Source: Escherichia phage vB_EQ1. Taken from it: a DNA stretch of 64,000 nt. The position numbers and the translations under genes were made by a program. Location: sequence record PQ516281; one strand, written 5' to 3'. Positions 9,301 through 9,871 of the stretch are shown here, one piece after another (the first letter of the stretch is position 1; the number at the start of each line of letters is the position of its first letter). Below the pieces are notes generated by a model, which was not told the DNA's origin, ran no database searches, and saw only the letters and a program-made list of their open reading frames with translations.

Positions 9301-9871
9301 TACAGAAGCAGACGGTGTTAAGTCACATAGCCATAGTGCAAGTGCATCAAACACAGATTTGGGTACTAAGACCACTTCTAGTTTTGATTACGGTAGCAAA
9401 ACGACTTCAAGCTTTGATTATGGTACTAAGACCAGTAATACCACTGGCAACCATAACCATACAGTGAGTGGTAATACTAGTTCCGCTGGTGCGCACCAAC
9501 ACGCGCGTTCAGGTCCTCAGGTACAAGGCGGCATACCCACTAGCATATTCTATGATGGATACAATAGTGCGGGTCCAAACGGCAACGCTAAATTCACTGC
9601 AACCGTGAGCGGTGCTACTGCATCGTCGAATATGGCCAAAACTTCTTCAGATGGTGCCCACACTCATAGTTGGTCAGGAACTACTAGCGCTACTGGTAAC
9701 CATGCTCATACTGTTGGTATTGGTGCTCATTCTCATACTGTTGGTATTGGTGCTCATTCTCATACTGTTGCAATTGGTTCCCATGGACATACAATAACTG
9801 TAAATAGTACAGGTAATACAGAAAACACAGTTAAAAACGTTGCTTTTAACTATATCGTTCGTTTAGCATAA
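6338..9871 (+). CDS. 37: Long tail fibre distal subunit / receptor-binding fibre gp37 (1177 aa)
   Basis: N-terminus conserved fibre sequence; C-terminal region has HxH 'His-box' repeats ([21 protein letters not shown]) typical of the T4 gp37 needle domain; about 150 aa longer than T4 gp37. Confidence 0.95.
9362..9437 (+). repeat. In-frame 30-bp tandem repeat (about 2.5 copies) encoding [10 protein letters not shown] / [10 protein letters not shown] in gp37
   Basis: ggtactaagaccacttctagttttgattac then ggtagcaaaacgacttcaagctttgattat then a partial copy. Confidence 0.8.
9707..9787 (+). repeat. In-frame 27-bp tandem repeat (2 perfect copies plus 1 diverged) encoding HTVGIGAHS His-box units in gp37
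   Basis: catactgttggtattggtgctcattct repeated at 9707-9733 and 9734-9760, degenerate third copy to 9787. Confidence 0.85.

Follow-up and report, generated by a model that had tools for sequence, protein, structure and literature searches.

In-frame repeat arrays in the gp37 needle of Escherichia phage vB_EQ1, a T4-type fibre tip with a stem probably one layer longer than that of T4

The closest described structure is the tip of the long-tail-fibre protein gp37 of phage T4 (PDB 2XGF; Islam et al. 2019, PMC6957217). In it a collar (D10) is followed by a stem of six strands, with HxH motifs on its axis, by a head and by a return strand, and the tip described here has the same composition. Seven iron atoms on the axis of the T4 needle are bound by its HxH motifs (PMC6957217; PMC11705849). 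The T4 residues in contact with LPS and OmpC map to the head subdomain, not to the stem (PMC6957217). HxH needles of differing length have already been noted in other phages (PMC11990801). In gene 37 of T-even phages short conserved adhesin motifs are sites of homologous exchange, by which small domains are reshuffled or duplicated (Tetart 1996, 1998, summarised in PMC3157838). Side tail fibres of lambda (Stf, with Tfa) and the tail fibres of prophages possess a homologous C-terminal needle, repeat modules of both kinds described below and a chaperone of the Tfa/gp38 type, but have a different N-terminal shaft and occur in siphovirus or prophage contexts; many are without the 14-aa HxH modules adjacent to the head (6-HxH class). 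Adhesins of the T2/T6 gp38 type (Trojet et al. 2011, PMC3157838) occupy the same position in the locus and carry conserved motifs that flank hypervariable receptor-binding segments. That protein, with its glycine-rich motifs, is unrelated to the chaperone-type gp38 of the phage described here, and the T2/T6 system is not applicable.

The stretch analysed, called the window, comprises 64,000 nucleotides of Escherichia phage vB_EQ1 (sequence record PQ516281), one strand, 5' to 3'. The genome is a Mosigvirus, almost identical to that of Escherichia phage MRostami-2023e (GenBank record UNVERIFIED). Identity to this record is 100% at 30000-42000 and, in a blastn comparison of 5500-11500, 100% at 5500-7863 and 9134-11500. 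The tail-fibre locus consists of gene 34 (590-4465), gene 35 (4474-5601), gene 36 (5664-6329), gene 37 (6338-9871, plus strand), gene 38 (9899-10450, plus strand) and the holin gene t (10460-11119); the coordinates of 34, 35, 36 and t are from the ORF list. The order 34-35-36-37-38-t and the sizes of the ORFs agree with the annotated locus of T4. Gene 37 encodes the distal subunit of the long tail fibre, 1177 aa with a C-terminal adhesin, as assigned from the ORF translation, T4 similarity and Pfam. The protein is 56-59% identical to T4 gp37 (BLASTP) and contains the Pfam domains gp37_trimer and Collar, the latter (PF07484) at aa 930-977 with E = 1.7e-10, which exceeds the curated cut-off. Gene 38 encodes a T4-type tail-fibre assembly chaperone of 183 aa, 68% identical to T4 gp38 over 179 aa (E = 1e-93) and matching Pfam Caudo_TAP. 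By these similarities gp38 is of the chaperone type and not of the T2/T6 adhesin type; the adhesin is therefore the C-terminal tip of gp37 itself, in agreement with an earlier note on this DNA, which had placed the receptor-binding tip in gp37 on the same ground. All defining sequence features of gp37 and gp38 that were checked are present, and on these features the gene is an ordinary T4-type gp37. A diversity-generating or phase-variation system was considered and rejected: template repeat, reverse transcriptase and invertase context are absent from the 34-35-36-37-38-t locus.

The spacer between genes 37 and 38 contains, on the plus strand, a GGGGC-UUCG-GCCCC tetraloop hairpin (9877-9890; RNA fold -15.6 kcal/mol, z = -2.1), directly following the AAGGAG that precedes gene 38. 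In some related GenBank records a terminator is annotated within the matching sequence. A simple terminator scan at the spacer hairpin found none.

The needle is organised as in T4, with all parts on the plus strand. The N-terminal part of the D10 collar, or knob (9110-9322, aa 925-995), has the same length as T4 residues 811-881 and is identical to them at 61 of 71 positions. The ascending strand of the D11 stem (9323-9502, aa 996-1055; aligned to 2XGF and T4 882-931) carries HxH motifs 1-3, which are HSH at aa 997, HNH at aa 1039 and HQH at aa 1053. Next is the head, or tip, subdomain (9503-9640, aa 1056-1101), presumed to be receptor-binding, aligned to T4 932-959 and poorly conserved. The descending strand of the stem (9641-9817, aa 1102-1160; aligned to T4 960-1009) carries HxH motifs 4-8, with the first His at aa 1108, 1122, 1131, 1140 and 1149. 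The C-terminal part of D10 and the stop codon (9818-9871) close the gene; 16 of the 17 residues are identical to T4 1010-1026. In a phmmer comparison the last 266 residues of gp37 match residues 14-242 of 2XGF chain A with E = 2.4e-80. The gaps in this alignment are exactly 10, 15, 3 and 9 aa, and they are the same in BLASTP against T4 gp37, where the tip is 59% identical to T4 797-1026.

All seven HxH motifs of T4 are aligned to HxH motifs of the window gp37, which has eight, and the His residues of the motifs are invariant in a 45-sequence alignment. The units had earlier been recognised as the metal-binding His boxes of the T4 needle; homology to 2XGF and the pairing of every T4 motif bear this out. 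An eighth metal site is predicted from the additional motif. The head is 18 aa longer than that of T4 and shows little relation to it in sequence, with identity at 7 of 28 aligned residues. By analogy with T4, where the receptor contacts map to this subdomain, it is likely to be the determinant of specificity. An AlphaFold2 monomer model of the tip, made from the 45-sequence alignment, was uninformative (pLDDT 53.7, pTM 0.22; head and both termini below 50). In the gp37 head of phage vB_Eco_F31 a 15-bp tandem duplication is present, 14 of 15 nt identical between copies and encoding QGGVPQGGVP, compared with a single QGGIP in the window; it is small, in frame and within the specificity region.

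The window gp37 is 151 aa longer than T4 gp37 (1177 and 1026 aa). The excess was partitioned by global alignment with T4 gp37, split at the published T4 domain boundaries (D10 811-881 and 1010-1026, stem 882-931 and 960-1009, tip 932-959; PMC6957217). Gains are +19 aa near the N-terminus (residues 60-248), +96 aa in the shaft (residues 658-924), +10 aa in the ascending stem, +18 aa in the head (+15 and +3) and +9 aa in the descending stem; the D10 collar has no extra residues. The needle holds 37 of the 151 extra residues, 19 of these 37 being two extra repeat units, and about three quarters of the excess lie outside it. The distal tip is not expanded by about 150 aa, as described in the earlier note; gp37 as a whole is longer by 151 aa, the D11 needle by only 37 aa. 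Compared with the T4 tip, the window has one additional ten-residue ascending unit, one additional nine-residue His box and, upstream, a longer and different shaft cassette.

Most of the extra length relative to T4 is accounted for by this shaft cassette (7864-9133, plus strand), both in the partition and in blastn against MRostami-2023e. The flanks of the cassette are 100% identical to that record and the sequence between them has no or weak similarity; the cassette is 1270 bp in the window versus 979 bp in MRostami-2023e, whose tip is 100% identical from 9134 on. The approximately 115 extra residues outside the needle would derive from exchanged shaft modules, unrelated to the repeats. Total gp37 length should accordingly not be taken as a property of the receptor-binding tip. 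Within gene 37 the segment 7864-9133 forms a mosaic patch, the right-hand junction of which lies at the start of the collar domain. Residues 59-204 of gp37 (6512-6949) are similar to the distal shaft of T4 gp37 (residues 648-808; 31% identity, E = 2e-13), which suggests a relocated or duplicated shaft module.

Two in-frame repeats lie within the stem. The 27-bp repeat (9700-9792, plus strand; TRF, 3.4 copies, score 123-135) encodes HTVGIGAHS units. It falls in a His-box array of four 27-bp units (9701-9808, plus strand; TRF and repeat search), the first three of which read HAHTVGIGA, HSHTVGIGA and HSHTVAIGS; T4 has three His boxes. Period 27 is perfect over 66 bp, or 2.44 copies (9705-9770, plus strand), where 39 consecutive nt recur unchanged 27 nt further on, which cannot be chance. 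The 30-bp repeat array (9356-9445, plus strand; repeat search) is built of 10-aa FDYG units, one unit more than in T4. Between adjacent 30-bp units 23 of 30 nt agree, as do 9 of 10 aa, and the array is not reported by TRF even at score 30. Both repeats are kept in register across more than 100 homologues. Two in-frame blocks with perfect DNA copies had been claimed earlier: both blocks exist, with correct coordinates and peptide units, and the copies are perfect in the 66-bp part of the 27-bp repeat, but the 30-bp units agree at only 23 of 30 nt. In the GenBank records of moha, mogra and teqhad a repeat_region is already annotated over the His-box array, that of moha corresponding to window 9700-9755. 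A promoter or terminator role of the repeat was rejected (sigma-70-like matches, 2 versus 1.9 expected; no terminator pattern). A +1-frame ORF inside the repeat region (9612-9797) was likewise rejected as a gene; annotated relatives show no conservation of it as a gene of its own, and it is purely mechanical.

Homologues of the tip number 2305 protein matches, mostly tail fibres or tail-fibre fragments of E. coli or Shigella prophages. Several carry misleading names (terminase large subunit, tape measure protein) and look mis-joined or mis-named. Lambda stf is 74% identical in nucleotide sequence to 9701-9871.

The reading that fits these features with good probability is a D10-D11 needle of a T4-type gp37, one layer longer than that of T4, in which the two repeats are halves of structural modules, the perfect tract has recently been homogenised and the rest of the excess length belongs to shaft modules. 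The chain would run up the trimeric stem, form the head and run back down. The 10-aa ascending unit and the 9-aa His box (HxHTVGIGA) would be the two halves of one structural module, and in each layer the three chains would bind one metal ion through their HxH pairs, as T4-type gp37 homotrimers hold one octahedrally coordinated iron per HxH layer. One layer more than in T4 would give eight HxH instead of seven and a somewhat longer stem, beneath the larger head of different sequence. Over evolutionary time layers may be gained and lost via unequal exchange at the repeats; such changes would hardly ever persist unless made in both arrays at once, since the register between the two strands has to be kept. 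We infer on this basis that the eighth site binds metal, that the 10-aa and the 9-aa unit pair physically, and that uncoupled states are selected against.

Comparison with relatives indicates that the perfect 66-bp tract is a product of recent homogenisation within the His-box array. The exact period-27 run of the window, 39 nt, is the longest in a comparison of more than 90 related loci, the next being 20 nt; the identical tip of MRostami-2023e carries the same perfect tract. Mosigvirus and Tequatrovirus gp37 proteins (MRostami-2023e, moha, TU01, JS09, p000v, phiD1, ATK47) have eight HxH and the copy numbers of the window, but in all of these except MRostami-2023e the His-box units have diverged, with exact period-27 runs of 8-20 nt. 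Unit 2 of the window equals the 5' 16 nt of unit 3 followed by the 3' 11 nt of unit 1. Relative to p000v and phiD1, the nearest non-identical relatives, units 1-2 contain six substitutions (9715, 9731, 9733, 9737, 9739 and 9742), each of the six yielding the base found at the paralogous position 27 nt downstream. Against the same phages the density of substitutions is 6/54 in units 1-2 versus 7/178 in the flanks. Homogenisation may have proceeded by short-patch gene conversion of units 1-2 from unit 3 or, equally possibly, by loss of a 27-bp unit and its re-duplication through the 12-nt repeat CTCATACTGTTG. In VR25 (IMGVR_UViG_2706795401_000001) the ascending array contains a perfect period-30 tract (38-nt run, two identical units), which by the same reasoning is an independent homogenisation of the other array.

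Alternatively, the repeats could represent nothing more than a long-established structural periodicity of a beta-stranded fibre, no longer dynamic, and the perfect tract could have arisen by coincidence of codon choice or have been inherited unchanged. Such an origin would be in keeping with the protein-level conservation of the repeat units, which extends from T-even phages to the side tail fibres of lambdoid phages, and with the DNA divergence of most arrays, in which adjacent units share 12-24 of 27 nt. It is nevertheless very improbable in view of the six-of-six agreement with paralogous bases, the extreme position of the window among the loci compared, the separate homogenisation in VR25 and a recombination junction within the His-box array of a further locus, L003, described below.

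Unchanged copy numbers of both repeats were found in 11 of 11 close relatives inspected (VR25 from IMG/VR, moha, MRostami-2023e, TH54, TH57, TU01, p000v, phiD1, F31, ECO07P1 and ATK47). O157 typing phage 3 and AV117 have the same unit numbers as the window. No 27- or 30-nt differences in span occur among the 60 best megablast phage matches. When GenBank matches to 9655-9871 were sampled at even spacing, 20 of the 21 near-full-length matches had the same span, the exception being Citrobacter phage PhiZZ23, a complete isolate genome. Over the entire tip PhiZZ23 has 98-100% nucleotide identity with L092, a human-gut contig (ENA OZHW01001626), and has the same head; exactly one unit of 30 bp and one of 27 bp set the two apart, and they form a pair of 7-HxH and 8-HxH needles. 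The locus L003 (IMGVR_UViG_3300030021_000020, found also as L094) has the head of TH54 but one His box fewer. L003 and TH54 are approximately 99% identical upstream of the His-box array and clearly less so downstream (89% over the whole alignment), which places a recombination junction inside the array. These are the only two near-identical pairs differing in copy number in the whole data set. No matches were obtained in IMG/VR when the window allele was searched as an exact pattern in 3-box/4-box and 5-box/6-box versions. A degenerate His-box pattern retrieved only two contigs from JGI/ENA metagenomes, both with four boxes, and nothing from IMG/VR beyond two contigs already known.

An assembly artefact, as the source either of the perfect repeat or of L003 and L092 with their differing copy numbers, has next to no probability. 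L003 and L092 are metagenomic contigs and the MRostami-2023e record is marked UNVERIFIED. The 66-bp tract is, however, in frame, shorter than ordinary reads and present also in that independent record, the gp37 shaft of which differs; PhiZZ23 is a complete isolate genome, and the indels are in frame and exactly one unit long.

A slippage-prone, contingency-like locus, in which the copy number of His boxes and FDYG units shifts often within populations and alters needle length and host range, is improbable, though less so than the alternatives above. Slippage or unequal exchange could plausibly act on the exact direct repeat of 39 nt, offset by 27 nt, the His-box array has recently recombined with itself, and the two allele pairs differ by one His box (TH54 and L003) and by one unit in each array (PhiZZ23 and L092). 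Against frequent shifts stand the constant copy number in the 11 relatives, the constant span in the 60 best phage matches and in 20 of the 21 sampled GenBank matches, the extent of perfect copies (only 2.4) and the divergence of the 30-bp array at synonymous sites. The two arrays are moreover coupled in 126 of 127 tips, so that a single slip would leave the stem out of register, and the receptor contacts of T4 lie in the head subdomain, not in the stem (PMC6957217). An effect of stem length on host range is a reasonable hypothesis in kind, with positive support neither from the census below nor from the location of the repeats in the stem. Copy-number comparison among isolates, which the earlier note had called for, shows invariance in the clade of the window and variation in the two near-identical pairs. 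Its suggestion that the repeats could vary needle length agrees with the classes of three, four and five boxes, the two allele pairs and the recombination within arrays, but not in the form of a hypervariable slippage locus.

Homogenisation in the window and in VR25 means that the arrays recombine with themselves, yet the copy number stays put, as expected if changes in a single array are selected against. The junction of L003 inside the His-box array and the conversion within the array of the window resemble the homologous exchange of the T-even system. Laboratory duplications of Tetart et al. reportedly involved a small specificity-determining domain and were obtained by selection on a new host. 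In the window the additional units differ from these in being stem modules fixed in a large clade, without demonstrated effect on specificity.

A census of homologous tips was compiled from 120 homologous proteins, 80 IMG/VR loci and 16 phage or metagenome loci, and gave 127 unique tips. Spacing between HxH1 and HxH2 is 32, 42 or 52 aa, equal to one, two or three ten-residue units, and is paired with three, four or five terminal His boxes, respectively, in 126 of the 127 unique tips, a ratio that overstates the number of independent events, the sequences being partly interrelated. The 14-aa HxH modules, of which a tip has 0, 1 or 2 ahead of the head, are without exception present in equal number behind it. 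The class of the window (spacing 42, four boxes, eight HxH) comprises 30 unique tips and more than 100 phage records, and that of T4 (spacing 32, three boxes, seven HxH) 30 unique tips; the 8-HxH needle is a common natural length class. The single uncoupled tip is that of L003, with two ascending units and three His boxes, and shows that coupling of the register is not absolute.

The most economical reading of the covariation is that the 10-aa ascending unit and the 9-aa descending His box are neighbours in the six-stranded stem and make up one layer; this pairing is derived from covariation and the published T4 fold, not from coordinates. Coupling could partly result from the mode of recombination, in which head cassettes are swapped between conserved boxes and both halves of the stem stay with the recipient, and not from selection. 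A more general rule is put forward tentatively and is rather less probable than its opposite: that the needle is a stack of two types of layer with the copy numbers of the two strands held equal, and that layers are gained and lost by paired unequal exchange through viable uncoupled intermediates such as L003, a process still ongoing to judge from the window and VR25. A layer of type I would consist of a 10-aa ascending unit and a 9-aa descending His box, with one HxH; a layer of type II would consist of a 14-aa HxH unit on each strand, with two HxH. Combinations of 1-3 type I with 0-2 type II layers are seen in the census. No statement of the paired-layer rule was found in the literature searched; the T4 tip structure paper and Tetart 1996 and 1998 were outside that search.

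The window itself is of very little significance, being a normal T4-type adhesin fibre with an identical tip already in GenBank. The repeats were correctly spotted but are ordinary, and the paired-layer rule is a modest by-product. If that rule is true, and if needle length tunes the reach to LPS or O-antigen or the kinetics of adsorption, the needle would provide a simple natural ruler for tail-fibre engineering. For engineering of T4-type or lambda-Stf-type fibres one unit would have to be added or removed on each strand together.
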